Assembly: GCA_964589735.1 (NCBI GenBank) | Contig: CAZPUL010000025.1 | Coordinates: 529-64,528, forward strand | DNA from: an uncultured Verrucomicrobiota bacterium | GTDB taxonomy: Bacteria > Verrucomicrobiota > Verrucomicrobiia > Limisphaerales > JAEYXS01 | Direction: 5' to 3' | Length of the DNA: 64,000 nt | Part shown: positions 1 to 17,842 of the stretch, piece by piece | Numbering within the stretch: the stretch's first letter is position 1 | Layout: every line of letters begins with the position of its first letter | The notes under the pieces: generated by a model | The model's input: only the letters and a program-made list of their open reading frames with translations | The model's database searches: none | What the model was told of the DNA's origin: nothing | Made by a program: the position numbers and the translations under genes

Positions 1-237
1 CAACACCCTCCTAACCCCAATTCGCGTAGCGACGACCCGATCTTCCCCGTAGCAGTTCCGCGACTGCGTGATGACGAGGCTCAAACCTCCCGCACCCACG
101 CCCGCCCACTTGCGGTAATTGCCGCACCAATAACGCCGCTCAGCCCCCGCCACATTAAGGCAAATCCCGCTCGACAGCCCGCCAAACCTCACTAAATTGC
201 CTTCAACCAAGATGAATTCTCCAGCCAAACCAACCAC
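1..237 (-). CDS. hypothetical protein, 5' part only (runs off left edge)
   Basis: Manual minus-strand translation is open from a TAA at 273-271 down to base 1. Candidate starts are GTG at 237-235 and TTG at 252-250. The peptide reads VVGLAGEFILVEGNLVRFGGLSSGICLNVAGAERRYWCGNYRKWAGVGAGG..., with a strong bias to G at codon position 1. No family recognised. It is truncated, so it is absent from the ORF track. Confidence 0.3.
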   Translation of the reverse strand, partial: MVGLAGEFILVEGNLVRFGGLSSGICLNVAGAERRYWCGNYRKWAGVGAGGLSLVITQSRNCYGEDRVVATRIGVRRVL

Positions 238-240
238 CGG

Positions 241-276
241 GCTTAACCGCAACCTGCGGTCTAATACCTGTTAGGC
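241..276 (+). repeat. short attC-like remnant (GCTTAAC ... GTTAGGC)
   Basis: GCTTAAC at 241-247 and GTTAGGC at 270-276 flank a small hairpin (cgca acc tgcg). At 36 bp it is shorter than typical functional attC sites, so the true 5' boundary is unclear. Confidence 0.3.
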
Positions 277-284
277 ATCAGCGC

Positions 285-551
285 ATGACAAAGACCGTCC
301 ACATCTTTGAGTCAGTTGGGATGGGAGTTTGCATAGGCTACGCATTGATTTGTTGGATTGCTGATCTAGCGCGCGTCGGGAACATGCACCCGGGAGTCAG
401 ATACAATCTTCTTTTTTCGGCTGGTGTGGCGACCACGGTCGTTGGCTTTTTGTTTGCGTGCGTTGCGTATCGCCGCCGACCAGTGTTTGCCCGCTGCACA
501 TTGGCAGCCTGTTTGTTGTGGGTAGTTTGGTCACTATTGCCAAGACTATGA
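285..551 (+). CDS. cassette ORF, small membrane protein (88 aa)
   Basis: ATG lies 8 nt after GTTAGGC. The stop TGA at 549-551 lies 1 nt before the R'' box GCCTAAC. Three hydrophobic segments. No family recognised. Confidence 0.55.
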   Translation: MTKTVHIFESVGMGVCIGYALICWIADLARVGNMHPGVRYNLLFSAGVATTVVGFLFACVAYRRRPVFARCTLAACLLWVVWSLLPRL

Positions 552-552
552 T

Positions 553-678
553 GCCTAACCATACGCTGCAGCGAACCCGGCGGGGGCGTCGCGGCGAGTC
601 CGCGAGTCCCGACACCGTTTGTCGGGATTGCAATCGTTGCGTCCCGTGCGCCGGGTCGCTGAGCTTGGGTCGTTAGGT
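553..678 (+). repeat. integron attC site (126 bp)
   Basis: Starts GCCTAAC and ends GTTAGGT. The arms cctaaccatacgctgcagcgaacccggcg and cgccgggtcgctgagcttgggtcgttagg are imperfect inverted repeats with unpaired bases. There is a central hairpin tcccgaca/tgtcggga. Confidence 0.7.
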
Positions 679-687
679 GTCTTGCGT

Positions 688-1143
688 ATGCCCTCGAAAC
701 TTACATGGGATGATTTGCTGATTCAGGGCATTCCCGAGTCGGACGCTCGCACTTGGCTCGGCTACTGGTCAGGCATGGTCGGCGGACGAGTCGCTCCAGT
801 TTTCATGTCGAAGTTCGGCGATTGGTTTCTTCGACGTCCCGACGGTGGCACGGACGAGCTTTCCGTCATTGAGGGCACATATTCTCAGGTCGCTTCCACG
901 CCGGATGAGTTTGCATCGCTTGTGAATTCGCAGGCTTGGCAAGAGCAGCATCTCCTTTCGTTTCAGGTAGGGCAGTTGCACGAACGCGGCATCATTCCGC
1001 AGGCTGGCCAGTGTTACGCATTCGCTCCGCATCCGGCGTTGCTTGGTCGCATTGATATTGAGAGAGTGATGCTCATGGACATCGGCGTATGGCAGCACAT
1101 CTGCGCCCATCATTTTATTTCCCAGTCAGTGAGCACCAAATGA
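688..1143 (+). CDS. cassette ORF, DUF1851 / Tdi1-like (T6SS immunity-type) domain protein (151 aa)
   Basis: ATG at 688 follows the attC. The TTG start at 619 in the ORF track lies inside the attC. From memory, the motifs FGDWFLRRPDG...L.V..G, GQCYAFAPHPALLG and VMLMDIGVWQHI match the DUF1851/Tdi1 C-terminal pattern. Confidence 0.6.
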   Translation: MPSKLTWDDLLIQGIPESDARTWLGYWSGMVGGRVAPVFMSKFGDWFLRRPDGGTDELSVIEGTYSQVASTPDEFASLVNSQAWQEQHLLSFQVGQLHERGIIPQAGQCYAFAPHPALLGRIDIERVMLMDIGVWQHICAHHFISQSVSTK

Positions 1144-1147
1144 CGAC

Positions 1148-1273
1148 ACCTAACCATGCGCTGCAGCGAACCCTGCGAGAGCGTCGCGGCGAGTCCGCGA
1201 GTCCCGACACCGTTTGTCGGGATTGCCATCGTTGCCTCCCGTGCGCCGGGTCGCTGAGCTTGGGTCGTTAGGC
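1148..1273 (+). repeat. integron attC site (126 bp)
   Basis: Starts ACCTAAC and ends GTTAGGC. It differs from the 553-678 copy at 6 of 126 positions. Confidence 0.7.
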
Positions 1274-1285
1274 CGCTTTCACACA

Positions 1286-1582
1286 ATGCCAAAACTCGCC
1301 TGTCCATGTGGTTTTGTTCACGATCTCTCGCCGATACCTGATGACGGTTGGAAGGTTATTCGCGACAGAGAGATGGAGTCATTCCTCGAACGTCAGCGTA
1401 TCTATGCAGATGGCTTTAACGCCGCTCCGGGCACGCCGGAGCGTGAGGCGTCTGACCGCGCCTTTCACGATGGACCACTAGTCGGAGTGCTTTATGATTG
1501 CCCGAAGTGCGGACGTGTCATATGGCGGAAGCGACCGGATGCGGAGTGGAGGATTTATGCACCAGAGAATCCAACGGCCTAA
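1286..1582 (+). CDS. cassette ORF, small Cys-pair (zinc-ribbon-like) protein (98 aa)
   Basis: ATG at 1286 lies 12 nt after GTTAGGC. It carries CPCG near the N-terminus and CPKCG near the C-terminus. The stop TAA (1580-1582) lies inside the R'' box GCCTAAC of the next attC. Confidence 0.55.
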   Translation: MPKLACPCGFVHDLSPIPDDGWKVIRDREMESFLERQRIYADGFNAAPGTPEREASDRAFHDGPLVGVLYDCPKCGRVIWRKRPDAEWRIYAPENPTA

Positions 1583-1675
1583 CAAATCGCTGCAGCCAAC
1601 GCCGGATGGCGCTGGCATCTCCGCTTTCGCGGGCCACGTCACTGGTCCGGCGTGGCTAAGCTTTTATCGTTAGGC
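1577..1675 (+). repeat. integron attC site (99 bp, divergent)
   Basis: Starts GCCTAAC and ends GTTAGGC. The arms cctaacaaatcgctgcagccaacgccgga and tccggcgtggctaagcttttatcgttagg are imperfect inverted repeats. The terminal boxes match the other two sites but the centre differs. Confidence 0.65.
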
Positions 1676-1676
1676 C

Positions 1677-1892
1677 ATGAGACAGAGCTTCATTTTTCTG
1701 CTTCTGGCTGCGACTGCATGCTTGTCTGGTTGCTCGCTAGGACCACAGGAGTTTATGTGGGGCGTGACTTTGTTCGTGATGGCAGCCATTTTCTTGGCGC
1801 TAGTCGGGGGAATCATCAGGGTTGTCGCAAAGTGTTTCGACAAGCGCAAGTCCAAGACCGAAAAAGACAGTGACACCAAACCAGAGCCATAG
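1677..1892 (+). CDS. cassette ORF, small lipoprotein/membrane protein (71 aa)
   Basis: ATG lies 1 nt after GTTAGGC. It has a lipobox-like LSGC after a hydrophobic leader, a second TM segment and a Lys-rich tail. No attC was recognised downstream. Confidence 0.5.
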   Translation: MRQSFIFLLLAATACLSGCSLGPQEFMWGVTLFVMAAIFLALVGGIIRVVAKCFDKRKSKTEKDSDTKPEP

Positions 1893-1913: not shown

Positions 1914-2240
1914 CTAAGTGGTTGTGGTGGAGACGAGTTTGTAGCCGAGAGCGGCGGCCCACACCTTCGGATCATACGGCACTCCATGCTTGAACAGGGC
2001 CATAATATCCGCGCTAAATAATGCACCATCGCCGTCGCTGGTATAAGAGCGTTTTTAAAAATGATGTAGCGGAGTGGAGCGCGGATTTTTGAGTTCGGGC
2101 GAGGCTTTGGCGAAGGAGCAGGTTCCATAGACCCTGTGACTGAGCCGAAACGACGCCAGAACCCAAAAAGACAGCTTACCTTCTCTCTCCCACCACTCCG
2201 CTACAGCATTTTTAAAACCGCTCTAAGCCCGCCACAGCAT
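1914..2240 (-). pseudogene. small ORF apparently split by the MITE-like insertion
   Basis: The minus-strand frame ...YTSDGDGALFSADIMALFKHGVPYDPKVWAAALGYKLVSTTTT* (stop at 1914-1916) runs into the left TIR and stops there. Removing 2047-2226 in silico, which leaves one TAA, joins it in frame to ATG at 2240-2238, preceded by ggagg. Confidence 0.25.
2047..2223. mobile_element. MITE-like non-autonomous element (177 bp, 31-bp TIRs, TAA flanks)
   Basis: The left end is gagcgtttttaaaaatgatgtagcggagtgg. The reverse complement of the right end is gagcggttttaaaaatgctgtagcggagtgg (2 mismatches in 31). TAA sits directly on both sides (2044-2046 and 2224-2226). No internal ORF. Confidence 0.5.
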
Positions 2241-2279
2241 TGCCTTCCCCTCCCCTTCGCGCCATAATCCCACACACCC

Positions 2280-3752
2280 ATGCCACCGCCACAGACACAC
2301 ACCTTGGTCTTGCGCACTCTCACTCTCCTGCTATGCCTGCTCTGTTCCCTCGCCCCGTTGACCACTCACGCCGCCGATAAACTCAACGTCCTCTTCCTCG
2401 TCTCCGACGACCTCAACACCCGCCTCGGCTGCTACGGCGACCACCTCGCGCAGACCCCGCACCTCGACCGCCTCGCCGCCCAAGGCGTCCGCTTTGATCG
2501 CGCCTATTGCCAGTTCCCCCTGTGCAGCCCCTCGCGCTCCTCCTTCCTCACCGGCCTGCGACCCGATCACAACGGCGTCGTGAACAACAGCGCGAACTTC
2601 CGCACCAAACTGCCCAACCATTTGACCCTCCCGCAGACCTTCCGCCAAAACGGCTGGTTCACCGCGCGCGTCGGCAAAATCTTTCACTACGCCGTCCCCG
2701 CCCAGATCGGCACTGATGGCGCGGACGACGCCCCTTCGTGGGAAAAAGTCATCAACCCCAAAGGCCGCGATGTGACCGATGAAGAAAAGATCTTCACCCT
2801 CCGCCCCGATCTCGCAGGTGCCTCCCGCTACGCCGGCACTCTGAGCTGGCTCGCCGCCGAGGGCACCGATGCCGAGCAGACCGATGGCCTCACCGCCCGC
2901 GCCGCAGTGAAATTGCTGGAGGAAAACCAAAGCAAACCCTTCTTCCTCGCCGTCGGTTTCTTCCGCCCCCACACCCCCTACGTCGCGCCCAAAAAATATT
3001 TCGACCTCTACCCTCTCGATAAGATCAAGCTGCCCGTTGTTCCCGCGAATGTGAAAGAACTCTTCCCCGCCGCCGCCCTCACCAATCGCAAAGACCACGA
3101 CGCCATGACCGACACCCAGCGTCGTCAGGCCATTCAGGCTTACCTCGCCAGCATCTCCTTCATGGATGCCCAGGTCGGCCATGTCCTCGCTGCCTTGGAC
3201 CGCCTGAAACTGCGCGAGAAAACCATCGTCATCTTTATCAGCGATCACGGCTATCACCTCGGCGAGAAAGGCCAGTGGCAGAAGATGTCCCTCTTCGAAG
3301 AATCTGCCCGCGTCCCCCTCATCATCTCCGCCCCCGGCATGGCCAACGGCAAACCCTGTCCGCGCGTCGTCGAACTCCTCGACCTCTACCCCACCCTCAC
3401 CGACCTCTGCGGCCTTAAACCCGCCGTGAAACTCGATGGCCTCAGCCTGCGCCCCTTGTTGCAAGACCCGAATGCCAACTGGGCCAAACCCGCCCTCACC
3501 CAGCAATCCCGTGGCGTCCCCGTCGGCACCTTCGAAACCGGCAAGAAACCCGCCACCCCTGGCTACATGGGCTACAGCCTCCGCACCGAACGCTGGCGCT
3601 ACACCGCATGGGACGCCGGCCGCAAAGGCCTCGAACTCTACGACCACGATGCCGACCCGCAGGAAATGAAAAACCTAGCCAACGATCCAGCCCACGAAAA
3701 GACCCGCGCCGAACTCCAAGCCCAACTGCTGAAAGCCATCTCACCAAAGTGA
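2280..3752 (+). CDS. Cys-type sulfatase, iduronate-2-sulfatase-like, secreted
   Basis: Signal peptide, then LFLVSDDL and the CSPSR motif (CQFPLCSPSRSSFLTGLRPD). About 65% identical by eye to the ORF at 40819-42288 over the N-terminal catalytic region. Confidence 0.9.
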   Translation: MPPPQTHTLVLRTLTLLLCLLCSLAPLTTHAADKLNVLFLVSDDLNTRLGCYGDHLAQTPHLDRLAAQGVRFDRAYCQFPLCSPSRSSFLTGLRPDHNGVVNNSANFRTKLPNHLTLPQTFRQNGWFTARVGKIFHYAVPAQIGTDGADDAPSWEKVINPKGRDVTDEEKIFTLRPDLAGASRYAGTLSWLAAEGTDAEQTDGLTARAAVKLLEENQSKPFFLAVGFFRPHTPYVAPKKYFDLYPLDKIKLPVVPANVKELFPAAALTNRKDHDAMTDTQRRQAIQAYLASISFMDAQVGHVLAALDRLKLREKTIVIFISDHGYHLGEKGQWQKMSLFEESARVPLIISAPGMANGKPCPRVVELLDLYPTLTDLCGLKPAVKLDGLSLRPLLQDPNANWAKPALTQQSRGVPVGTFETGKKPATPGYMGYSLRTERWRYTAWDAGRKGLELYDHDADPQEMKNLANDPAHEKTRAELQAQLLKAISPK

Positions 3753-3853
3753 ATACGCAGCCAGACGGCCAGTCGCTCCAGGCCTTGTCATTGCCGATAC
3801 GTCCCTGCGTCAGCCAAACAACGGCCAAACTAGCATCGGCACTGGAAATGTTA

Positions 3854-3910
3854 TCTCCCTCTCCCTAATGGCAGGCCGAGCTTCGGCGGAGAGGGCCGGG
3901 GTGAGGGGTA
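3854..3910 (+). repeat. REP-like hairpin repeat ('GERAGVRG' element), copy 1
   Basis: tctccctctccc...ggagagggccggggtgaggggta. The same core occurs at 15121-15164 and 31929-31972. This copy has an extra inner hairpin, gccgagcttcggc. Confidence 0.7.
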
Positions 3911-4151
3911 AGGAGACGTCCATCATGCAAATCCAAACACCATTCGCCGGCAAATCACGCGGATGTCTGCTTTTTTCGGGTTCCATAAACTTATGGGTAA
4001 TGGCCAGTCGATCCCGCTTATCATTGCTTTGTTGTTACTCATATCCTGACTGCGCCCCTTTCCCCTTCATAAATCATAATTCATACCTCACACTTTGCTT
4101 CCTTCCCGCAGTTGCCTTTCTCCCTCCAGTACGCTTCATTGATGCATCGCC

Positions 4152-6446
4152 ATGAGAAACGCACCGCTGATCATTGCTGTTTTGGTCGCCGTATCCGCCC
4201 TTGCCGGATACGAGGCCGGCAAGCGTCGCGCACCGCAACCAGCCCCTGCGCCCGCCGTTCCCGCTCCTGCCAAGACCGCCGAAGTCAAAAAGCCCGCGCC
4301 GAAACTGGTCGTCGAAAAACCCTTGGGCACTTCCCGCATCTCCTTGGCCGAAGCCGAGCAGCAGGTCCGCGATATCCTGCTCAACCCTGTTCCCCGGCTA
4401 GACCGTCTCTATCCCATACTCGCCTCACTTTCCCCCGGCGACCTCGCCGCCCTCACCTCCAGCCTCGTGGCCTCGCCCCGCGGCATCCAGGAGTATCTGA
4501 TCACCAGTCACGTGCTCGCCCGCTGGGCCGACTTCGCCCCGCACGACGCTCTCAGTTTCGCGGAGAAAATCCCCAACCGCAATCAACGTGATGCGGCCAT
4601 CGCCACCGCCCTGGGCGCCTTGGCTCGCACCGATTCGGCCGCCGCCATCACCTATGCGAACAGCCTCACCGGACAAGGCCGCATCTCTGCCTGGCACGCA
4701 CTGGCCCGATCCATGGCGGAAACCGATCCCGCCCGCGCTCTGAAATTGGCGTCTGAGAATCTCACTGCTTACGAAGCCGCCAACGTTGGCAGCACCATCA
4801 TCCAGATCTGGAGCGGCTGGGATCCGCAAGCTGCCCTGGCCGCCCAGTTGGCTTTGCCCGGCAATCGCTCCCGCGAATACAATATCGCCAACATCTATGG
4901 CCGCTGGGCCACGACTGATCCCCAGGCCGCTCTGGCCAGTGCCCTGCAATTGAAGGACGCCGCCGCGCGTGACAACTCCGTCCGGCGCGTCCTGAGCCAG
5001 ATCGCCCTCACCGACGCGCCCGGCGCCATACAGGCCGCCAGCCAGTTGACCGGCCGGATGCGTGAGCAGGCACTCGGCGAAATCGCGCGTATCTGGGCCG
5101 GTCGGGATGCTGCTGCCGCCCTGCAATGGGCCCAGAATGCCCCCAAGGAAAGCGAACGCCGCGCCACCCTCCGGAGCATCATGCCGGAGCTCGCCCGTTC
5201 TGATATCCAGTCCGCCGTCCGCTTCTTGGAATCCCTTCCCGTCGGCACCCTGAAGAACGAATTGGTCGGCAGTCTGCTCGGCACTTGGAGCTACACCGAC
5301 CCTCAGGCCATGATGAACTGGGTCAATTCCCAGCCCCCGGGCGCTCTCAAGAAAAACGCCCTCAGCCAGGCCATCAACCAGTTGAGCTATCAAGACCCCG
5401 TCACCGCTGCCCAATTGCTGAGCGCCTCACCCGGCAGTTCCTCGGATACTTACCGCTTCCAGTCGGTCGGCGAAAACTACGCCCGCATCGATCCGGAAAA
5501 AGCCCTGGCCTGGGTGCAGTCCCTCCCGCCCGGCAAAACCCAGAACGAAGCGATGCAAGGCGCCCTCAATGCCATCGCCCGGACCGACCCGCAATACGCC
5601 TTGGACATCGCCACCCAACTCCCCGCCGGTCGCTCCCGTGAAACCACCTTGAATTCCATCTTCAGTTCTTGGGGTGAACAGGATCTGACCAGCGCGGTCA
5701 CCTGGCTCAAAAATGTGAAGGATGAATCCCTCCTCCTCGCTGCCAGCCAGTCCCTCAGCTACAAATGGGGCCGCGAAGCGCCAGCGGATGCCGCCGCCTT
5801 CGGCCTGACCCTGCCCGAAGGCAGCAAGCGCCTCGACTACCTGGCCAACGTCACCCAATACTGGGCGCAAGATAACCCCGCTGACGCCTTGGCCTGGGTC
5901 ACCGCCCTCACCGATCCCAAGTTGCGCGAGCGCACGATCCCCAACGCCGTCAGCGCCTGGGCCGCCACCTCACCACTGGAGGCCGCCAATTTCGTCTCCA
6001 CGCTTCCGGCTGGCAAGGAGCAGGACAGTGCCGCCCTCCAAGTCGTCTCCACCTGGGGCCGCGAAGACCCTGCCAGCACCGCCGGCTGGGTCAACGCCTT
6101 CCCCGAAGGCCAGTTGCGTGAAGACGCCCTGCAACGGCTCGCTTCTTCCTGGGCTTCACAAGATTCCACTGGTGCCTTGAAATGGTTGAATACCCTGCCC
6201 GCTGGCAAATCCCGTGACCGCGCCGTCGGCTCCTTCGTGGATAATCTCAGCTATCAGGAACCTGCGCTAGCCGCCTCCGCCGTTCTGGGCATAGCTGATG
6301 ACAACAGCCGCTATCAGCGGATGGAAAACATCGCCAACAACTGGCTGCGCAATGATGAAAAAGCCGCCCTCAACTGGCTGAACCAGGTGCCTCTGCCCGT
6401 CGACCGCAAAGAACGCATCCTCAAATCCCATCAATCGAACCGTTGA
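4152..6446 (+). CDS. membrane-anchored helical-repeat protein (764 aa), function unknown
   Basis: N-terminal TM segment and a Pro/Ala-rich linker, then roughly 17 tandem units of about 36-38 aa with the recurring pattern W..(D/T)P..A(L/A).W...LP.G..R... Confidence 0.75.
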   Translation: MRNAPLIIAVLVAVSALAGYEAGKRRAPQPAPAPAVPAPAKTAEVKKPAPKLVVEKPLGTSRISLAEAEQQVRDILLNPVPRLDRLYPILASLSPGDLAALTSSLVASPRGIQEYLITSHVLARWADFAPHDALSFAEKIPNRNQRDAAIATALGALARTDSAAAITYANSLTGQGRISAWHALARSMAETDPARALKLASENLTAYEAANVGSTIIQIWSGWDPQAALAAQLALPGNRSREYNIANIYGRWATTDPQAALASALQLKDAAARDNSVRRVLSQIALTDAPGAIQAASQLTGRMREQALGEIARIWAGRDAAAALQWAQNAPKESERRATLRSIMPELARSDIQSAVRFLESLPVGTLKNELVGSLLGTWSYTDPQAMMNWVNSQPPGALKKNALSQAINQLSYQDPVTAAQLLSASPGSSSDTYRFQSVGENYARIDPEKALAWVQSLPPGKTQNEAMQGALNAIARTDPQYALDIATQLPAGRSRETTLNSIFSSWGEQDLTSAVTWLKNVKDESLLLAASQSLSYKWGREAPADAAAFGLTLPEGSKRLDYLANVTQYWAQDNPADALAWVTALTDPKLRERTIPNAVSAWAATSPLEAANFVSTLPAGKEQDSAALQVVSTWGREDPASTAGWVNAFPEGQLREDALQRLASSWASQDSTGALKWLNTLPAGKSRDRAVGSFVDNLSYQEPALAASAVLGIADDNSRYQRMENIANNWLRNDEKAALNWLNQVPLPVDRKERILKSHQSNR

Positions 6447-6456
6447 CCTCATCACC

Positions 6457-8010
6457 ATGCTACGCTCCTTGTTCCTGTGGCTTTTTGCGCTCTCGTTGAC
6501 CGCAACCCAAGCGGCCGACCTCAAACTCCCGAAGCTCCCCGGCACCAAGCCGCGCAACATCATCTTCGTCCTCGCCGACGATCATCGCTACGATGCGATG
6601 GGTTTCCTTGGTCATCCTTGGCTCGAGACACCGAATCTGGACCGCCTCGCCAAGAACGGCGTCCATTTCCCGAAAGCGATGGTCACCACCTCGCTCTGCT
6701 CCCCCAGTCGCGCCTCCATCCTCACCGGCCTCTACGCGCACAACCATCGCGTGGTGGATAACTACAACCCCGTCTCCCCCGCACTGACTTTCTTCCCCCA
6801 ATACTTGCAGAAGGCCGGTTACGAAACCGCCTTCTTCGGCAAATGGCACATGGGCGAAACGGATGAACCCCAGCGCGGCTTCGATCACTGGGTCGTCTTC
6901 AAAGGCCAGGGCAGCTACTGGCCCGATGGCCGCGGCACCTCGCGCGTCGTCCCGCAAACCGCCTACGACGGCTTCAATATCAACGGCAAGCAACGCGTCC
7001 CGCAAAAAGGCTACATCACCGATGAACTCACCGACTACGCACTCGACTGGTTGAACTCGCGCAAGTCGAACAAGCCTTTCTTCGCCTACATCTCGCACAA
7101 AGCCGTCCACTCAGACTTCGTCCCGCACGATCGCCATAAAGATCGCTACAAGGATAAACCCTTCACTCCGCCCGCCTCCCTCGCCAACACCCCGGAGAAC
7201 TTCGCCGACAAGCCCATGTGGCTGCGCAACCAGCGCAACAGCCGCCACGGCGCGGACTTCGGCTACAACCTCCCCGACTTCGACCTCGCCGCCTATTACC
7301 GCCGCTACTGCGAAGCCCTCCTCGCCGTGGACGACAACCTCGGACGTGTCTTCAAATGGCTGGAAGATCACCACCAACTTGAGAACACCCTCTTCGTTTA
7401 CATGGGCGACAACGGTTTCCAGTTCGGCGAACACGGCCTCATCGACAAACGCACTGCCTACGAAGCTTCCCTCCGCGTCCCCCTCCTCATGCACTGCCCC
7501 GCCGTGTTGAAACCTGGAACAACCATTCCGCAAACCGTCGCTAACATCGACATCGCCCCGACACTCTTGGAATTCGCCGGTTTGCGTCCGCCCTCACACA
7601 TGGATGGCCGCAGCTTCCTGCCGCTCCTGCAAGGCAAGCCAACCGCATGGCGTGAAAACATCCTCTACGAATATTATTGGGAACAGAACTATCCGCAAAC
7701 ACCCACCATGCATGCCGTCATCGGCGAACGCTACAAATACATCCGCTACCACGGCCTCTGGGACCTCAACGAACTCTACGACCTCCAAGCTGATCCGCAC
7801 GAGCGCAAGAACCTCATCGCCGATGCCAGCCAGCAAGCACGCGTGAAGCAGATGAACGCCCAGCTCTTCGACCTGCTGGAGCAAACCCACGGTGAGAACC
7901 TCCCTCTCCTCCGTGACCGTGGCACCGTCTATCCCTGGCGACACCCGGATAAGGGCCAGCAAGCCCCCTTTCCCAAAGAGTTTTTCCGCCGCTCGGAAAA
8001 TACTCCGTAG
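6457..8010 (+). CDS. Cys-type sulfatase (N-acetylglucosamine-6-sulfatase-like), secreted
   Basis: Signal peptide, IIFVLADDHRYD and the SLCSPSRASILTGLYAHNH sulfatase signature. Confidence 0.9.
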   Translation: MLRSLFLWLFALSLTATQAADLKLPKLPGTKPRNIIFVLADDHRYDAMGFLGHPWLETPNLDRLAKNGVHFPKAMVTTSLCSPSRASILTGLYAHNHRVVDNYNPVSPALTFFPQYLQKAGYETAFFGKWHMGETDEPQRGFDHWVVFKGQGSYWPDGRGTSRVVPQTAYDGFNINGKQRVPQKGYITDELTDYALDWLNSRKSNKPFFAYISHKAVHSDFVPHDRHKDRYKDKPFTPPASLANTPENFADKPMWLRNQRNSRHGADFGYNLPDFDLAAYYRRYCEALLAVDDNLGRVFKWLEDHHQLENTLFVYMGDNGFQFGEHGLIDKRTAYEASLRVPLLMHCPAVLKPGTTIPQTVANIDIAPTLLEFAGLRPPSHMDGRSFLPLLQGKPTAWRENILYEYYWEQNYPQTPTMHAVIGERYKYIRYHGLWDLNELYDLQADPHERKNLIADASQQARVKQMNAQLFDLLEQTHGENLPLLRDRGTVYPWRHPDKGQQAPFPKEFFRRSENTP

Positions 8011-8176
8011 TTTCCAACGTGCTGGGATTTTCCATTCGATTTTCAGCGTTCGCTGCTGGATGCGCTTTGCTTCCCCAGTTCACTCATCATTGCTCATTGC
8101 CAGGTCATTCATGCTTCGTCATCAGTCATTTCTCAACCTCCTTGGAATTTCCATCAAAGTCTGATAGCTTTGATTC

Positions 8177-8440
8177 ATGATTCTACGGGTCACCCTGGCC
8201 GATTGCGGCGCGAAGATCGAAGACTGCATGGAAGGCCGTCTCACGCACGACGAACTGCGCGAATGGGCTCGTGACGCCATGATGGCCATGGACATCCCCG
8301 CCCACGAATACGAAGAGATCATGGCTCTGCTGCAGGACATCAACACCAGCACCAAGGAAAACCTGCGCGTGGCTTTCAAACACTACAAAGCCTTCAGTTC
8401 CCCTCTCACCCAAGGCCTGCCCAAGAGCTGGCTGCAGTAA
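8177..8440 (+). CDS. hypothetical small acidic protein (87 aa)
   Basis: The ORF has coding-like codon usage. No family recognised. An alternative start is the Met at 8228. Confidence 0.45.
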   Translation: MILRVTLADCGAKIEDCMEGRLTHDELREWARDAMMAMDIPAHEYEEIMALLQDINTSTKENLRVAFKHYKAFSSPLTQGLPKSWLQ

Positions 8441-8452
8441 ATCTTCATCAAT

Positions 8453-8800
8453 ATGGGCATGGTCCTTTGCCGGAAACACGGCCTCACCGGCATCTCATTC
8501 GCTTGTGAACACGTCGTGGCAGCGACCCAGCAGGAGCAAACCGTCAAATCGGTTCCGTTGCTCACGATTTTTTTCTACGCAAAGAAGACCTTACTCTGCG
8601 AGGCCTGCTACGCCGACTTTATCAGCCGCTTTCCCGATTCTGCACTGGTCAACCAGATCTTGGCACAATGGGCTGATGATGAATTGGATGAAGCAACTAG
8701 TGCTTTCCTCGACACTTTATACCAACCTGTTTGTGGCCGCTGCTTCCGAGAATTCCAGCAGACAAACCCACCCGGTTCCAGTTCGTTCGATTCAAAATGA
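8453..8800 (+). CDS. hypothetical Cys-pair protein (115 aa)
   Basis: The ORF starts 12 nt after the previous one. It carries LCEACY and CGRCF pairs (zinc-ribbon-like). A hairpin follows at 8806-8827. Confidence 0.45.
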   Translation: MGMVLCRKHGLTGISFACEHVVAATQQEQTVKSVPLLTIFFYAKKTLLCEACYADFISRFPDSALVNQILAQWADDELDEATSAFLDTLYQPVCGRCFREFQQTNPPGSSSFDSK

Positions 8801-8830
8801 AAAAAGGCGGACCGTTTCCGGTCCGCCTTC
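8800..8830 (-). terminator. rho-independent terminator downstream of pnp (may act in both directions)
   Basis: Stem ggcggacc (8806-8813) pairs with ggtccgcc (8820-8827), with loop gtttcc. On the minus strand a T-run follows the stem. Confidence 0.7.
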
Positions 8831-8851
8831 TCGAATTATTTTAGGAGCAGC

Positions 8852-11005
8852 TTAGGCTTTCGCTTCCGGCTTCTCGCCCTTCGCGGCCATTTCCTTGTCG
8901 CGGTCTTCCATCGCGGCGCGGCGGGACAGCTTCACGCGTCCCTTCTCGTCGATGCCCAGGCACTTCACCCAGATCTCGTCGCCGACTTTCACGATGTCTT
9001 CCGTCTGCTTCACGCGGAAGTTCGCCAGCTCGCTGATGTGCACCAGGCCGTCCTTGCCGGGCAGCACTTCCACGAAGCAGCCGAATTCCTTCAGCGTGAC
9101 GACTTTGCCACGGTAGGTCTTGCCGATCTCGATCTCGGCCGTCATGCCCGTGATCGCGTCCTTGGCGAGCTGCATGCCTTCCTCGGACACCGAGTAAACA
9201 TGCACTGTGCCGTCGTCGTCGATGTTGATCTCGCAACCCGACTCTTCGACGATGCGCTTGATGTTCTTGCCGCCAGGCCCGATCAGCAGACCGATCTTGT
9301 CCGGGTCGATCTTCAGCGTCGTGATGCGCGGGGCATACTTGCTGAGGTTCGAGCGCGGTTCAGCCAGCGTCTGCTTCATGCTCTCGATGATGCTGAGGCG
9401 GGCGACGCGCGCCTGCTCCACCGTCTCGGCCATGATAGAGAACGGCAGACCCTTGAGCTTCAAGTCGAGCTGGAAGCCCGTGATGCCCTTCGTCGTACCG
9501 GCGATCTTGCAATCCATGTCGCAGAACGCATCTTCCCAGCCGATGATGTCGGTCAGGAGCTTGTAGCGGGAGATTTCTTTGTTGTCGTTATACTCCGTGC
9601 AGATACCCACGCTGATACCGGCGACGATGCGCTTCAACGGCACACCGGCGTCCATCAACGCAAGGCTCGCGGAGCAGACAGAGGCCATCGAGGTGGAACC
9701 GTTGGATTCCATGATCTCGCTGGTGATACGGATGGCATACGGGAATTCCTTCAAGTCCACGAGCGGAGCGACCGAGCGTTCGGCCAATGCTCCGTGACCG
9801 ATCTCACGACGGCCTGGACCCGAGATACGGCCCGTCTCACCGACGGAGAAATTCGGGAAGTTGTAGTGCAGGATGAACTGCTTCTCCGTCTGGCCACCGG
9901 TGTAGGAATCATATTCCTGGGAGTCTTCGGTGGTGCCGAGCGTGACCAAGGCCAAGGCCTGGGTTTCACCACGGGCGAACAACGCGGAACCATGCACACG
10001 GGGCAGCAGGCCGACTTCACCGGAGATGGCCCGGATGCCATCGGCCGCGCGACCGTCGAGGCGCTTGCCGTGATCGAGGATCAGGCCGCGAACCGCTTCC
10101 TTCTGGATGTAATATTGGGCGTCTTTGAGGACGAATTCGGTCACCTTCTCGGCGCCGAACTTCTCCACGAGCTGTTTGCCGACATCGGCGAACACCGCTT
10201 TCACTGCGGCTTCACGCGCGAGCTTGGCCGTCGTGAGGAGCGCGGGCACGATGCGGTCACCGGCGAGCTTCTTCGCTTCCACGAGGATCTCTTCGGGCAC
10301 GATGTTCACCGTGATCTGGCGCTTTGGCTTGCCGGCTTTCGCGGCGAGCTGCTTCTGCGCTTCGATGATCGGCTGGCAGGCCTCATGGGCGAATTTGAGC
10401 GCCGCCATGAAATCAGCTTCCGTGATCTCATCGGCACCGCCTTCGAACATCACAACGTCCTTCTCGTTACCCACGTAAACGAGGTCCATGTCGCTCTGAC
10501 CCTGCTCTTCATGCGTCGGGTTCGCGATGAACTTGCCGTCCACGCGCGCCACGCGCACCGCACCCAAGGGACCCGCCCAAGGGATGTCGCTGACCATCAG
10601 CGCCGCCGAGGCACCGATGATGCTCAAGATGTCGGGATCGTTCACGCCATCCGCGCTCAGCAGCACGGTCTGGACTTGCACTTCGTTATACCAGCCCTTC
10701 GGGAAGAGCGGGCGGATCGGACGGTCGGTCAGACGGCAGGTGAGGATTTCCTTTTCCGTCGGACGGCCTTCACGCTTGAAATAACCACCGGGGAACTTGC
10801 CGGCGGCAGCGGCCTTCTCGCGGTAATCCACCGTGAGCGGGAAGAAGTCCTGACCGGGCTTCGCGTTCGGGGCGGCCACGGCGGCCACGATGATCATGGT
10901 TTCACCGAGCTGCACGGTGACGGCACCATCAGCCTGCTTGGCCAACTTGCCGGTTTCGATATGGATCTCCTGGGCGCCTACCTTGGCTGTTACTTTTTCG
11001 GGCAT
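8852..11005 (-). CDS. pnp: polyribonucleotide nucleotidyltransferase (PNPase)
   Basis: 717 aa with two RNase PH-like halves, then KH and S1 domains ([28 protein letters not shown]). It sits directly downstream of rpsO. Confidence 0.97.
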
Positions 11006-11120
11006 ACTATGCTTTCTGTATTTGCCCGTCAGCCTAGAGGAACTTCAGTGAACACCTGCCAGCAACAGGCGCTGAATGAAATTTCCCCGGCCAACGGACG
11101 GTTTCTTCGCGATTACAAAC

Positions 11121-11160
11121 AAAAAACGGCCAGACTAGATCGCGTTCGCTAGTCTGACCG
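11121..11160 (-). terminator. rpsO terminator / pnp leader hairpin
   Basis: The minus strand reads ggtcagactag-cgaacgcgat-ctagtctggcc followed by gtttttt, between the rpsO stop and the pnp start. Confidence 0.65.
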
Positions 11161-11218
11161 TGGAAACCTTTGGTGAAATTGTCACCGGGCCTTCAACGAA
11201 TTGAAGAATTCCCTTACC

Positions 11219-11482
11219 TTACTTGCGGAGGTTGAGCTTCTTCGTCACCGCCTTGTAGCGCGGAGCATCCGTGGTGTGGAGATAGTCGAGCAGGCGGCGG
11301 CGCGTGCTGACGAGTTTCAAGAGACCACGGCGTGAGCTGTTGTCCTTCTTGTTGCTTTGCAGGTGCTCCGTGAGCATATTGATCCGCTGGGTCAACAGCG
11401 CTACCTGGACATCGGCAGAACCGGTGTCTTTGTCATGCAGACGAAAATCCTGAACGATCTGACCTTTCAACTTTGCTTCCAT
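11219..11482 (-). CDS. rpsO: 30S ribosomal protein S15
   Basis: 87 aa with ...HLQSNKKDNSSRRGLLKLVSTRRRLLDYL..., typical of S15. Conserved rpsO-pnp arrangement. Confidence 0.95.
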   Translation of the reverse strand: MEAKLKGQIVQDFRLHDKDTGSADVQVALLTQRINMLTEHLQSNKKDNSSRRGLLKLVSTRRRLLDYLHTTDAPRYKAVTKKLNLRK

Positions 11483-11748
11483 ACTTATCTGTTAATAAAT
11501 GAAGGCGGGACACTAAGTGCTTCATACGCTGGTGTAAAGACATTTTAGAGCCACTTCCTGCCCTCCCCTTTCCGCCGGGGCCGATTGGTTCTGTCACGAT
11601 TTCACCTAAGTATGCTATTATCAATAACTTTGAACAACAAACGGCCATTCCTGTCTAAATCAGTGATAATCGCCGGTTGGCACAGCCCAAGCTGAATAGG
11701 TCTTGTTCCCATGGACGGTTATCGTCTTAACTGAACCCTTTACGATTT

Positions 11749-14700
11749 ATGGTAGGTCTCAAAATGCAAAGCACTCCAGCAGCACCTTCCGCCGCCTCGC
11801 CGCGGAAGAAAAAGCTGCTTATCCTCGGCACCATTTTCATCGGTCTGCCGGTCATCCTCTACTTCTTCCTGACCAGCGGCTATTTCATCAAGTCCTTCGT
11901 CTTGCCCAAGGCAGGCAAAACTTTGAACGCCACCATCACGGTGGAGGACATCTCCGTGAGCCCCTTCTCCGCCGTCTCCTTGCGTGGTTTGAAAGTGGTA
12001 ACCACGGGCGAACCCCTGCTCACTGCGGATTCCGCCAGCGTCCGTTACAGCCTCATGGACATCATCGGTGGCAAACTGAATGTCTCCGAACTCAAGGTGC
12101 AATCCCCGAAGATCAGCATCGTGCAGAATGTGGATGGCACCTCCAACCTCTCCCCGATCCTGGAGGCTCTCAAAGCCAACGAGCAACCGGAAGCACCCGA
12201 AACCGCCGAGCCCGGTGAAAAACCTAAACTCGACTTGAAGAACATCGCGCTGGAAAACGCCCGCTTCACTTTCGCGCAAGCGCTCCCCGCTGGCGGCAAA
12301 CAGACCATCGAACTTGCCAGCATCAATCTCTCCGTGGATCAGGTCGTCTCCGGTATCGCGGGCAAACTGCAACTCGCCACCGACATCGTGTTCGACCAGC
12401 AACTCACGCCGACCAATGCACCCAACCGCCTGGAGACCAAGGCCACGGCGAACTTCGATTTCCTCATCACTCCCGACCTCTTGCCCCAGAGCGTGAAAGG
12501 CAAAACCGAACTCACCGTCGGCAAAACCACCGGCACCTTCGCCGATCTGGCGGGCTTCGTGGCCACCCTGAACACGGAAGTCTCCCCCACGGAAGTGAAA
12601 AGCCTGCGTCTGGAGTTCAATCAGAACACCGAAGCCCTCGGCGCCATCCTCGTGAGCGGCCCGATGGATCTGAACAAAGGTGAAGTGAAGCTGAACCTCA
12701 ACGTGGAGCCGCTCGGCAAACGCGTGCTCAACCTGGTGGGCGCCGCCATCGGCTACGACTTCGGCAGCACCCAGATCTCCAGCAGCAACGTGCTCGAAGT
12801 CACCAAAGGTTTCACCTTCGTCTCCGTGAACGGCCAGTTCAACGCGCAGAAATTCACACTCATCAAAGATAAGCAGCAGGTCACGCCGTTGGATTTTTCC
12901 GCGCAATACGATGTAAAGCATAACCTTGAAAACGGCATCTTGAATATTGAACAACTAAGTTGTTCCGCCCGACAAAAAAACAATCAAGTGTTGGCCATCA
13001 ATCTCAGTAAGCCTTTGTCACTTCCCCTAGCCTTCATTTCAAACCCCAGTGCCAATATTTTGCATGCGCTTGACGACCTGAAGCTCAGCGATGCTTCATT
13101 AAACTTAAAACTCAGCCAGCTCAACCTCGCCGATTGGAAACCCATCATCGGAACCGCCGCCAGCGCGGGCTTGGTGGATGCCTCAGTAGATATTTCATTC
13201 GCCAACGGCGGCAAGGAAATCAACTCAACCTTTCAGACGACAGCCAAGAACCTGACTTTAGTCTCCAGCGACAAAAATCCGGCCCCGATCAACACCTCGC
13301 TCAAAGGCAAATTCACCACGCAAAACTTCACATCCTACAAAGGCAACGTCGTCGCCAATGTCACCGGCAAGTTCGCTGACCTGCGCCTCGACGATCTGCA
13401 GATGGCTGCCGATCTGACCGTGAACATCTCCACCCAGCAAGTCATCACCCCCACGCTAGCCGTCTCTATCCAGCACGCCGGCAAACCCGCTGGCAGCCTC
13501 GATTTCAGTGGCACTTACAATACCACGAATTCAACGGGCAAATTCGACTACACGCTCGGCAATCTGAACGAGAATCTCCTGGCTGCCGTGCTCGATCCTT
13601 TCCTGACGGATGCCAAACTGACCTCGCTCACCATCAATTCCAAAGGCACGTTCACCTTGAATCCGGCCGCTGAATCCGGTGTGAAAGCCGACCTCCAACT
13701 GACCCGCCTGCTCGTCACGGACAAGGCCGGAAAATTGCCCAAGGAAACCTTGAGCGCCGTGGCCACGCTGGATGCCAGCATGGACAAGCAAGTGCTGAAC
13801 CTCCGCACCGTGCAGTTGAATCTGACCCCGACTGAGCGCGCCAAAAACGTCCTCAACCTCAGCGGCAAGATCGACTCCTCGAAATCCAACGCCATCACCG
13901 GCAGCGTGAAAATCGCGTCTGACGGCCTTGACCTGACCCGCTACTACGACCTCTTCGCCGGCACTTCCAGCGATACTACCAAACCCTCGGCCTCCACCCC
14001 CGCCCCGGTAGTTGACCCGAACAAGGAACCCGAGCCTGTGACGCTGCCTTTTAAGAATTTCAAAGCGGAACTCGACCTCAAGAAACTTTATCTGCGCGAG
14101 ATCGCGATGGAGAACTGGCAGACCACCTTGCTGCTGAACGGCGGTCAGGTGAAGATCGAACCGGCCAAACTGGTGCTCAACGGCGCGCCCGTCAGCGCCC
14201 GGGTGGACCTGGACCTCAGCGTCCCCGGTTACCGTTATGATATCAGCGCCAAAGCGGACAAAGTTCCCCTTGCCCCCTTGGCCAACAGCTTCGCCGAGGA
14301 GTATAAAGGCCGGGCGGCGGGCGACATGTTCGCCAATATCGCCATCAAGGGCGCAGGCACCACCGACAAGAGTTTGCAGAAAAACCTCACGGGCAACATT
14401 TCGCTCAACTTCACCAACGCCAACATTCAGTTGATCGAGAAAGGCGCATTCTATCCTGTAATCGCCGCCGTGGCCCTGGTCTTGCGCGTCCCGGAAGTGC
14501 TGCAATCCCCGCTCAACGCCGTGGTCGCCAATGTGACGATCGGACAGGGCGCCATCGACCTGCAAAAAGCGATGGCCCACAGCCCCGCCTTCATCGCCAA
14601 TGTGACCGGCAAAATCCCCATGTCCGACGTGCTGACAAACTCTCCTTTGAATCACCCCGTGGAATTCCAGCTCGCGCAAGGTCTCGCCAAACATTTCTCC

Positions 14701-15000
14701 ATCACCGGCCGGGATGCGACCAATGCCTTTGTGCAGATGCCCAGCTTCCTGGCCTTGAAAGGCACCTTGGGCGAACCTAAGGCCGACATCAAAGAACTGG
14801 TCATCACCGGTCTGCTGCTCAAATCCGCCGGAGCCCTCCCCATCGATCTCGGTGATAAGGGCAACAACATCCTCAAAGGTGTCGGCAACATCCTGACCGG
14901 CCAGCCGAACAAACCGGCGGATACCAACGCACCTTCGCAGACCACCACGAACAAGCCGGCCACCATCAATCCCTTCGACCTGTTCAAGAAGAAGAAATAG
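11749..15000 (+). CDS. AsmA-family outer-membrane biogenesis protein (about 1080 aa)
   Basis: N-terminal TM anchor (LLILGTIFIGLPVILYFFL), then a long beta-rich repetitive body. Size and architecture fit the AsmA/DUF748 families. An alternative ATG is at 11764. Confidence 0.7.
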   Translation: MVGLKMQSTPAAPSAASPRKKKLLILGTIFIGLPVILYFFLTSGYFIKSFVLPKAGKTLNATITVEDISVSPFSAVSLRGLKVVTTGEPLLTADSASVRYSLMDIIGGKLNVSELKVQSPKISIVQNVDGTSNLSPILEALKANEQPEAPETAEPGEKPKLDLKNIALENARFTFAQALPAGGKQTIELASINLSVDQVVSGIAGKLQLATDIVFDQQLTPTNAPNRLETKATANFDFLITPDLLPQSVKGKTELTVGKTTGTFADLAGFVATLNTEVSPTEVKSLRLEFNQNTEALGAILVSGPMDLNKGEVKLNLNVEPLGKRVLNLVGAAIGYDFGSTQISSSNVLEVTKGFTFVSVNGQFNAQKFTLIKDKQQVTPLDFSAQYDVKHNLENGILNIEQLSCSARQKNNQVLAINLSKPLSLPLAFISNPSANILHALDDLKLSDASLNLKLSQLNLADWKPIIGTAASAGLVDASVDISFANGGKEINSTFQTTAKNLTLVSSDKNPAPINTSLKGKFTTQNFTSYKGNVVANVTGKFADLRLDDLQMAADLTVNISTQQVITPTLAVSIQHAGKPAGSLDFSGTYNTTNSTGKFDYTLGNLNENLLAAVLDPFLTDAKLTSLTINSKGTFTLNPAAESGVKADLQLTRLLVTDKAGKLPKETLSAVATLDASMDKQVLNLRTVQLNLTPTERAKNVLNLSGKIDSSKSNAITGSVKIASDGLDLTRYYDLFAGTSSDTTKPSASTPAPVVDPNKEPEPVTLPFKNFKAELDLKKLYLREIAMENWQTTLLLNGGQVKIEPAKLVLNGAPVSARVDLDLSVPGYRYDISAKADKVPLAPLANSFAEEYKGRAAGDMFANIAIKGAGTTDKSLQKNLTGNISLNFTNANIQLIEKGAFYPVIAAVALVLRVPEVLQSPLNAVVANVTIGQGAIDLQKAMAHSPAFIANVTGKIPMSDVLTNSPLNHPVEFQLAQGLAKHFSITGRDATNAFVQMPSFLALKGTLGEPKADIKELVITGLLLKSAGALPIDLGDKGNNILKGVGNILTGQPNKPADTNAPSQTTTNKPATINPFDLFKKKK

Positions 15001-15020
15001 GGTCACTGAATCAAAACTGA

Positions 15021-15055
15021 GCCGGGGCTTGTTACCACCCCGGCTTTTGTTTTTA
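15021..15055 (+). terminator. rho-independent terminator
   Basis: Stem gccgggg (15021-15027) pairs with ccccggc (15038-15044), followed by ttttgttttt. Confidence 0.7.
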
Positions 15056-15120
15056 ATTCATTCCACCATAGGCTGCCACCTCAGCCAGGCCGCTAAAATA
15101 TTTTATCGGCTCCGCCGTAG

Positions 15121-15164
15121 CTCCCTCGCCCCTCAATGGGGAGAGGGCCGGGGTGAGGGGTGAG
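15121..15164 (+). repeat. REP-like hairpin repeat ('GERAGVRG' element), copy 2
   Basis: ctccctcgcccctcaatggggagagggccggggtgaggggtgag. Confidence 0.7.
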
Positions 15165-15191
15165 CAAGCCAAGCGTATTTAGAAATCCATT

Positions 15192-16562: not shown

Positions 16563-16632
16563 GAGCGCGGCTCTCCGAGCCGCAGCAACGTGAAAAGCAA
16601 ATAACGTCATAAATTATTTCATCGCTCACCAC

Positions 16633-17781: not shown

Positions 17782-17842
17782 ACTGTCTCTCGTTTTGGCA
17801 TTGTTCCCCCTGCCCTAGCCCGCTAGAACTTCCGCGCAACCG

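Follow-up and report, generated by a model that had tools for sequence, protein, structure and literature searches.

The stretch of DNA analysed here (64,000 nucleotides of contig CAZPUL010000025.1, from an uncultured Verrucomicrobiota bacterium of the Limisphaerales; hereafter the window) carries an integron cassette array at its left edge, between position 233 and about position 1892. The array is made up of an attI-like entry site, three complete gene cassettes and one truncated cassette, and the gene of the integron integrase (intI) is absent from its usual place. We consider it likely that this array, in a Limisphaerales-like Verrucomicrobiota chromosome, is an attC-site cluster without an integron integrase (CALIN) that has kept its attI. 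The initial annotation of this DNA had described an array of integron-type cassettes with attC sites and no integrase in view, and that description has been upheld in every test run. Both CALINs and integrons of the Planctomycetes–Verrucomicrobia–Chlamydiae (PVC) bacteria have already been described, so the element is of an ordinary and common kind. Slightly beyond the textbook are the retained attI, the recurrence of the attI core without intI in several contexts, a C at the first flipped-out position of the attC sites, and an identical 33-nt loop insertion in two neighbouring attC. Loci of other genomes are referred to below by L numbers.

The attC sites

Three attC sites lie on the + strand: site a at 553–678 (GCCTAAC...GTTAGGT, 126 nt), site b at 1148–1273 (ACCTAAC...GTTAGGC, 126 nt), and site c at 1577–1675 (GCCTAAC...GTTAGGC, 99 nt). 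A covariance model built from 12 attC sites, all of them from other genomes and all in 8-kb tiles carrying intI, scores these sites at 82.7 bits (E 1.7e-17), 73.3 bits (E 3e-15), and 72.1 bits (E 5.9e-15), respectively. The hits are strand-specific, the - strand of the same sites reaching 17.5 bits at most, and a search of the whole 64 kb with filters off gave nothing beyond the three sites at E <0.3. Sites a and b are 95% identical, and site c has only the two ends in common with them. The complementarity between R'' and R' is 6/7 in a, 6/7 in b, and 7/7 in c, and all three lengths fall within the 57–141 bp of attC sites, in line with what the initial annotation had said of their lengths. The same annotation had placed RYYYAAC at or just after the stop codon of an open reading frame (ORF) and GTTRRRY just before the next ATG, and this phasing is confirmed. 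In fact, R'' begins 1 nt past the stop of ORF1 (549–551) in site a and 4 nt past the stop of ORF2 (1141–1143) in site b, the TAA stop of ORF3 (1580–1582) lies inside R'' of site c, and the ATGs that follow the three sites (688, 1286, and 1677) are found 10, 13, and 2 nt beyond GTTRRRY. The three elements are identified as genuine attC sites. An Rfam scan of 1–2400 returned two sub-threshold chance matches and no attC family.

The secondary structure has been examined on both strands, each of which is much more stable than shuffled controls in every site (z from -2.3 to -6.0). In the consensus fold of the 12 model sites, a 7-bp R box is followed by a 5-nt spacer on the double-prime arm, the L box with position 16 unpaired, a 6-bp stem at 17–22, an unpaired position 23, and a further stem with compensatory changes; the sites of the window align to this fold with positions 16 and 23 unpaired. 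The geometry described for functional attC sites (PMC5027507) has one flipped-out base at 16 and another at 23 or 24, which a 6-bp stem separates; the distal base is a conserved bottom-strand T. The attC family of the window also carries a bottom-strand T at 23 (top-strand A), as in the described sites, and the bottom-strand folding suggested in the initial annotation as a check for extrahelical bases yields minimum-energy folds with bulges at the expected attC positions. In an alignment of 150 family members, which was fitted to the model and thus leans toward structure, 94.1% of cells are paired, compared with 24–36% when the partners are slid; 19 of the 24 pairs have changed on both sides, and none of 500 shuffles reaches the observed values. 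In comparison with experimentally characterised sites, such as attC(aadA7) of class 1 integrons and the Vibrio cholerae repeats (VCR), the sites of the window share the RYYYAAC and GTTRRRY ends, the flipped-out base at 16, the bottom-strand T at 23 six pairs apart from it, and the length range of 57–141 nt. On the other hand, there is no sequence relationship outside the core, the bottom strand has C instead of the usual G as its first flipped-out base, the spacer on the single-prime arm has 7 nt, and the loop of two sites contains a double-hairpin insertion of 33 nt.

This insertion (CGAGTCCGCGAGTCCCGACACCGTTTGTCGGGA) occupies 595–627 on the + strand, in the loop of site a, and has an identical copy at 1190–1222 in site b. 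It is defined by comparison with the consensus of a common 93-nt attC type, so that sites a and b correspond to the 93-nt type plus the insertion, which forms two small hairpins. Further copies are absent from the window and from all fetched loci. Within the array, the attC centres appear homogenised, because the ORF2 cassette is followed by a different attC centre in two other arrays (L126 and L122, see below). A side effect of these repeats concerns gene calling. Mechanical ORFs at 458–676 (72 aa) and 1089–1271 (60 aa) run through sites a and b, respectively, and attC-spanning ORFs yield a recurrent peptide, ...PNH(T/A)LQRT(R/L)R(G/E)RRGESASPDTVCRDC.RC.PCAGSLSLGR, an artefact also present in L072; gene callers may therefore annotate attC-derived ORFs as proteins.

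Cassettes and cargo genes

The initial annotation had also proposed that the cargo consists of small ORFs, co-oriented on the + strand and phased with the attC sites, and all the coordinates and end motifs concerned are present in the sequence. Cassette 1 (271–672) contains ORF1 (285–551), coding for a hydrophobic protein of 88 aa with no family, and attC site a. Cassette 2 (673–1267) contains ORF2 (688–1143, 151 aa), which is DUF1851/Tdi1-like, and site b. Cassette 3 (1268–1669) contains ORF3 (1286–1582, 98 aa), with a CxC...CPxC pattern that is possibly a zinc ribbon, and site c. The start of a fourth cassette (1670–1892), also on the + strand, consists of TTAGGC followed by ORF4 (1677–1892), whose 71-aa product has a signal-peptide-like N-terminus and one hydrophobic segment. 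ORF4 begins 2 nt past site c, behind the canonical TTAGGC, and its composition is like that of the cassettes and unlike that of the host. No attC was found after it in 1676–2300, either with the covariance model (filters off, E up to 10) or with a scan for motif pairs; because of this, the ORF4 unit is read as a terminal cassette that is probably truncated or decayed.

The product of ORF2 matches PF08906 (DUF1851, the C-terminal domain of the type VI secretion system immunity protein Tdi1) with an E of 1e-4, which is under the curated cut-off, and has 258 homologues, up to 93% identical, some of which are assigned by their source names to Planctomycetes, Thermoanaerobaculia, Proteobacteria, and Verrucomicrobiota. 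Homologues 85–93% identical are located in other arrays: in L126 (93%) the gene lies between two attC sites, and in L122, from a Planctomycetes metagenome-assembled genome (MAG), it is followed by a 94-nt attC. Both cassettes have the same ORF end and the same R'' (ACCTAAC) as that of the window, together with different attC centres. The presence of the ORF2 cassette in different arrays is direct evidence for the mobility of cassette 2 as a unit. No family match was obtained for ORF1, ORF3, and ORF4, ORF3 giving just weak zinc-ribbon hints, and no homologues of the cassette ORFs were found in the 120 genome tiles listed in the scan described below. The cargo includes no gene with an established function.

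The array also stands out by composition. The segment from about 280 to about 2000 is a compositional island, with positive GC skew compared with -0.2 to -0.46 in the flanking host genes. Under a codon model of the host, the four small cassette ORFs score from -0.06 to -0.46 bits/codon, compared with 0.43 +/- 0.15 for pieces of host genes. Moreover, seven of the eight GTTAGGY matches of the 64-kb window fall within 270–1675, about 5.8 being expected by chance in the whole window. A foreign origin of the segment is supported by a composition and codon usage unlike those of the host, and by its absence from a close relative (L132, see below).

The attI-like site and the left flank

An attI-like site lies at 233–276 on the + strand, and reads ACCGCAACCTGCGGTCTAATACCTGTTAGGC. 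It begins with a hairpin (ACCGCA-ACC-TGCGGT), followed by TCTAATAC, CT, and GTTAGGC. This last motif, at 270–276, is the fourth GTTAGGC that the initial annotation had noticed ahead of the first ORF; it is expected to be the crossover of the attI-like site, with a predicted exchange at G270|T271, 14 nt before the ATG of ORF1. The annotation had expected attI to lie left of coordinate 1, which has proved incorrect: the site is inside the window, because a profile of six integrase-linked attI regions matches 233–278 (nhmmer, E 4.9e-6; the runner-up in the whole window has E ~10). The site can be aligned with the stretch that separates intI from the first cassette in L094, L082, L061, and L113, and in L086 and L090, where intI is co-oriented with the cassettes. 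In the common layout, a short hairpin comes first, then a TAATA-type box, and two or three bases lead to GTTAGGC. The nearest relatives are in L072 (96% identity over 25 nt) and in L127, L128, and L130, which represent one locus, and L129 (97% over 30 nt). The attI1 simple site, with its two inverted boxes around G|TT, is like the attI-like site of the window in this respect.

Upstream of this site, a sigma-70-like sequence at 171–198 on the + strand (TCGACA-16-TAAATT) points into the array, and its match to the consensus makes it a candidate cassette promoter. The same consensus scan gave 4 sites in 2.4 kb, with 1.1 expected, and Verrucomicrobial promoters may differ from the consensus. The left flank (1–217) is C-rich, fits no coding frame, and belongs to the segment that is non-syntenic with the close relative L132. 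No other copies of 1–217 were found in the window or in the fetched loci, and there is no homology to L132. None of the frames of 1–195 codes like the host, the best giving -0.25 bits/codon compared with 0.43 +/- 0.15 for host genes, and the open + frame 1–195 has no homologue among 5.8 billion proteins and no family match. On these grounds (no homologue, no family, and codon usage that is not host-like) the ORF at the left edge has been rejected as a host gene.

Where the integrase would be expected

Twelve relatives that bear an integrase have been compared. In ten of them, intI is divergent from the cassettes, and in the four loci with a locatable attI (L094, L082, L061, and L113) the divergent gene starts about 76–150 nt from the crossover. 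An equivalent placement in the window would put the first 40–60 codons of intI, including the LREQ..EV.RFKHY block, on the - strand of 1–190. No such gene is there. A tblastn search with an IntI1 probe gave nothing across the 64 kb; tblastn with four Verrucomicrobial IntI against the left flank gave only noise (E >0.1 in a search space of 400 nt); and an nhmmer profile of 12 intI 5' regions did not match window 1–400 at E up to 100. In the remaining two relatives, the MAGs of L086 (Chthoniobacteraceae) and L090 (Planctomycetota), intI has the same orientation as the cassettes, and the distance from its end to the attI downstream is about 228 nt and about 100 nt, respectively (L086:2956–3324 and L090:4398–5114); the IntI of L090 has a proline-rich C-terminal extension. 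A further null result comes from the nearest attI relatives (L072, L127/L128/L130, and L129), where no IntI is found within 1–9 kb upstream.

Two possible remnants have been considered. A decayed 5' end of intI on the - strand of 1–190 was suggested by a MAFFT alignment, in which the 26 nt at 82–107 resemble the intI start of L113; tblastn gave noise, nhmmer gave no match, and the resemblance is attributed to C-rich composition. The other candidate, a C-terminal tail of IntI in the + frames of 1–195, was suggested by the co-oriented layout of L086 and L090; it shows no conserved motif, produces mutually inconsistent alignments, and is of low probability.

A probable CALIN with a retained attI, and its alternatives

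CALINs were defined in 2016 as attC clusters that lack the integron integrase, with at least two attC within 4 kb (Cury et al., PMC4889954). They are about as numerous as complete integrons, 83% of them have fewer than six attC, and 95% are not near recognisable intI pseudogenes (PMC4889954). The array of the window is alike in having at least two attC within 4 kb, in its small, promoterless, and co-oriented cassettes, mostly with no assigned function, and in having no adjacent integrase or recognisable intI pseudogene in the window; its three attC are a typical size. It differs in keeping an attI-like site at its head, a feature that the definition of CALIN ignores. In addition, the integrase-free stretch of 4 kb used in that definition can be followed around the three attC for 62 kb on the right side, which is clear, and for just 552 nt on the left of the first attC. 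On the other hand, the array is not a sedentary chromosomal integron, which is recognised by more than 19 attC or by presence in all genomes of the species, because it has 3 attC and the segment is missing from the relative with 98% PNPase identity. The initial annotation had left two possibilities, an intI left of coordinate 1 or else a CALIN. The second is better supported, because a divergent intI is not where most relatives have it and has left no remnant; the first is less favoured, and within it a co-oriented intI starting just beyond nt 1 is possible, because the window shows 269 nt upstream of the crossover and L086 and L090 have that layout. What results is a well-delimited Verrucomicrobiota cassette array with every site mapped to the base, attI retained, and no adjacent integrase in the window; as a CALIN, it would be either frozen or reliant on an IntI encoded elsewhere in the genome.

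Several points weigh against this interpretation. The 12 sites of the covariance model were reached by means of a 5' pattern taken from the window's own sites, so that agreement over the first 23 nt is built in. On the bottom strand, a C takes the first flipped-out position (top-strand G), compared with the usual G at position 16 (PMC5027507), a base described as usual and thus not strictly defining. Furthermore, the window shows only 269 nt upstream of the crossover, the last cassette has no attC, and no recombination has been seen.

The main competing explanation is a complete integron, with an intact intI just left of nt 1 that would either be co-oriented, as in L086 and L090, or be parted from attI by the 217-nt C-rich stretch and perhaps also by an insertion. 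We regard it as unlikely, although it has some precedent: in 2 of the 12 integrase-bearing relatives the stop of a co-oriented intI lies about 100 (L090) or 228 nt (L086) upstream of the crossover, of which just 269 nt are visible here; the IntI of L090 has a proline-rich C-terminal tail, and the spacer between its stop and attI resembles window 1–240 in being C-rich. However, the open + frame 1–195 has none of the conserved C-terminal motifs of IntI (LLGH..TT.IYTHV and VRSPLD), its similarity to IntI is at noise level (E >0.1), it has no homologue and fits no coding model, and the closest attI relatives have no intI for 1–9 kb upstream. The complete chromosomal integrons of Verrucomicrobiota and Planctomycetota MAGs (for example L094, L082, L061, and L113; L086 and L090) resemble the array in having the same attC family, 80–98% identical over long stretches, the same attI layout, and a short spacing between crossover and first ATG; they differ in that their IntI lies 76–150 nt (divergent) or 100–228 nt (co-oriented) from the crossover, and none is found in the 269 nt of the window.

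Far less probable is that the cassettes were inserted at a genomic attG site (GWT), so that the left junction would be host DNA. Cassettes can insert at many genomic GWT sites, and small CALINs as well as isolated cassettes may arise in this way (Loot et al., bioRxiv 10.1101/2022.09.11.507474), and the lack of an adjacent integrase is in agreement with such an origin. In fact, the products of those insertions, including single attC sites lacking an integron integrase (SALINs), are like some loci of the present family in that the cassettes lie away from integrase genes, L072 and L127 carrying a single one. In the window, the left junction is attI-like instead of an arbitrary GWT, and an attG origin is disfavoured because of this: the 45 nt left of the crossover match the integrase-linked attI profile (E 4.9e-6), whereas random attG have just GWT in common; the hairpin, the TAATA-type box, and the GTTAGGC layout are present; and the flank 1–217 is neither host-like nor syntenic with the relative. 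Finally, the repeats might be palindromes of the repetitive extragenic palindrome (REP) type or the miniature inverted-repeat transposable element (MITE) type, unrelated to integrons, a proposal suggested by imperfect palindromes of 93–126 nt with many copies in related genomes. It can be practically dismissed, because the repeats occur only at ORF ends and in one orientation, stand in tandem arrays beside IntI homologues, and carry the RYYYAAC and GTTRRRY ends and the attC-specific unpaired positions 16 and 23. The scattered distribution that would have spoken for REP or MITE elements is not seen in the window either, where the three copies are all contained in 1.1 kb and the remaining 62 kb has no copy.

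The attC family and integrons in other genomes

A scan of 185,579 species-representative genomes with CCTAACNNNNCGCTGCAGCSAAC found at least 120 matching tiles, compared with a chance expectation estimated at about 10. Among the matches listed, 82 tiles are labelled Verrucomicrobiota (one of them Kiritimatiellia) and 12 Planctomycetota, that is, 94 in these two phyla, and the others bear the names of Acidobacteriota, cyanobacteria, and a few further or probably mis-binned taxa. These numbers contradict the suggestion of the initial annotation that an integron in a PVC-like genome would be less familiar, and integrons were already reported in Verrucomicrobia in 2016 (PMC4889954). Homologues of IntI about 50% identical to IntI1 have been found, among the matches listed, in six tiles of the family (L109, L094, L082, L061, L113, and L006), and fragments in eight more. 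The commonest family member is the 93-nt site (29 of the 68 extracted sites). Site c belongs to a 99-nt type and is, for example, 93% identical to L050:119–217; the 93-nt and 99-nt types occur together in the arrays L014, L038, and L111.

The distribution of the 93-nt type is broad. It is more than 90% identical across MAGs of Verrucomicrobiota, Planctomycetota, Acidobacteriota, cyanobacteria, and Proteobacteria (L014, L038, L044, L064, L078, L105, L023, and others), and MAGs labelled Klebsiella, Bifidobacterium, and Saccharibacteria contain it as well, probably as a result of binning errors. Such breadth suggests either a very wide flow of cassettes or bins contaminated by integron contigs. 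A single attC family (93-nt and 99-nt types) with more than 90% identity across MAGs labelled as different phyla (Verrucomicrobiota, Planctomycetota, Acidobacteriota, cyanobacteria) bears on how far cassettes travel.

attI sites away from an integrase, and a possible mechanism

The attI core CTGCGGTCTAATACCTGTTAG stands at the head of cassettes, with no intI nearby, in four or more unrelated settings, namely the window, L072, the L127 group, and L129. The order in L072 is host-type gene, attI-like site, a single cassette whose attC has 93 nt, and a second host gene. In L127, the ORF immediately upstream of the attI-like site is on the - strand and has 314 aa with no assigned function; downstream of the site there is one cassette. 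Closely related attI-like cores that head cassettes are at L072:2919–2946, L127:8939–8968, L129:504–533, L103:2202–2232, and L115:4630–4663, and no IntI homologue is found within 1–9 kb of them; L115 has a weak possible intI remnant (E 0.02) 1.4 kb upstream of its core. Another example of an array apart from an integrase is provided by GCA_965283725.1, a Limisphaerales MAG (CRY1-m2-bin11) whose PNPase is 97% identical to that of the window. In this genome, contig CBDIPT010000001.1 holds both L113, with intI, attI, and attC, and, apart from it, L014, an attC array whose tile gave no match to IntI. The supply of IntI in trans is therefore plausible in the lineage. About half of the CALINs in complete genomes have an IntI encoded elsewhere (PMC4889954). 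More speculatively, modules of an orphan attI plus cassettes might be recurrent functional satellite platforms in Verrucomicrobiota, capturing and releasing cassettes by means of an IntI encoded elsewhere, an idea to which we give rather little credence. If orphan attI were indeed active in trans, a part of the CALINs would serve as functioning integration platforms instead of being dead remnants.

The way in which the array might work can be proposed from the known biology of integrons (PMC5027507, PMC4889954). The bottom strand of each attC would fold into the R box, an unpaired spacer, the L box, and two flipped-out bases, which IntI would bind, and the integrase would cut the AAC triplet between A and C. 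A cassette would be released as a circle when two attC sites recombine, and a circle would be inserted at G270|T271, next to the promoter, when its attC recombines with the double-stranded attI. The cassettes would be read from a promoter upstream of attI, for which 171–198 is the candidate. With no integrase adjacent, the array would be static or be served by IntI from another locus.

Right boundary and host neighbourhood

To the right of ORF4, a spacer (1893–2045) has no attC and no repeat copies and is non-syntenic with L132. It is followed by an inverted-repeat element of 179 nt (2046–2224), with inverted ends of 32 nt that are 94% complementary; each arm has an AT-rich core, TTTTTAAAA. 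No other copies of the element were found in the window or in the fetched loci. In L132, whose PNPase is 98% identical, homology starts at window 2228 and nothing matches 1–2227, a TPR/peptidase gene preceding the sulfatase. Because L132 has no counterpart of 1–2227, the array is considered to belong to a segment that varies between strains and has its left boundary beyond the window. The right end of the inverted-repeat element coincides with the resumption of synteny with L132 (2228), and the element may delimit a variable island or represent an insertion of the MITE kind.

The host is indicated by the PNPase gene of the window (8852–11005, - strand), whose product is 95–98% identical to proteins named Verrucomicrobiota or Verrucomicrobiae. 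Other relatives are less informative on the left flank: the contig of L131, a 99% relative, ends inside the sulfatase, and L134 and L136 are non-syntenic at that point. The host neighbourhood is variable between close relatives. For example, a repeat protein of 764 aa (4152–6446) between two sulfatases is absent from L132, and L131 and L136 have beside pnp a block of type II secretion-like genes that is not in the window (about 8450–8790, compared with L131:12293–16996). The host genes from 2280 to 20000 have a C-rich coding strand, with C making up 0.44 of third positions overall and 0.62 in the sulfatase, and a GC skew down to -0.46; since the coding strand of the host is so strongly C-rich, foreign segments are easy to spot. 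Finally, no record of ORF1 and ORF2 themselves was found, and the sole other identical public sequence, which is also the only one with the exact sulfatase, is a Logan contig of 1742 nt from SRR35255321 (L001). It corresponds to window 2143–3884 and begins within the inverted-repeat element, so that SRR35255321 probably contains the same strain.

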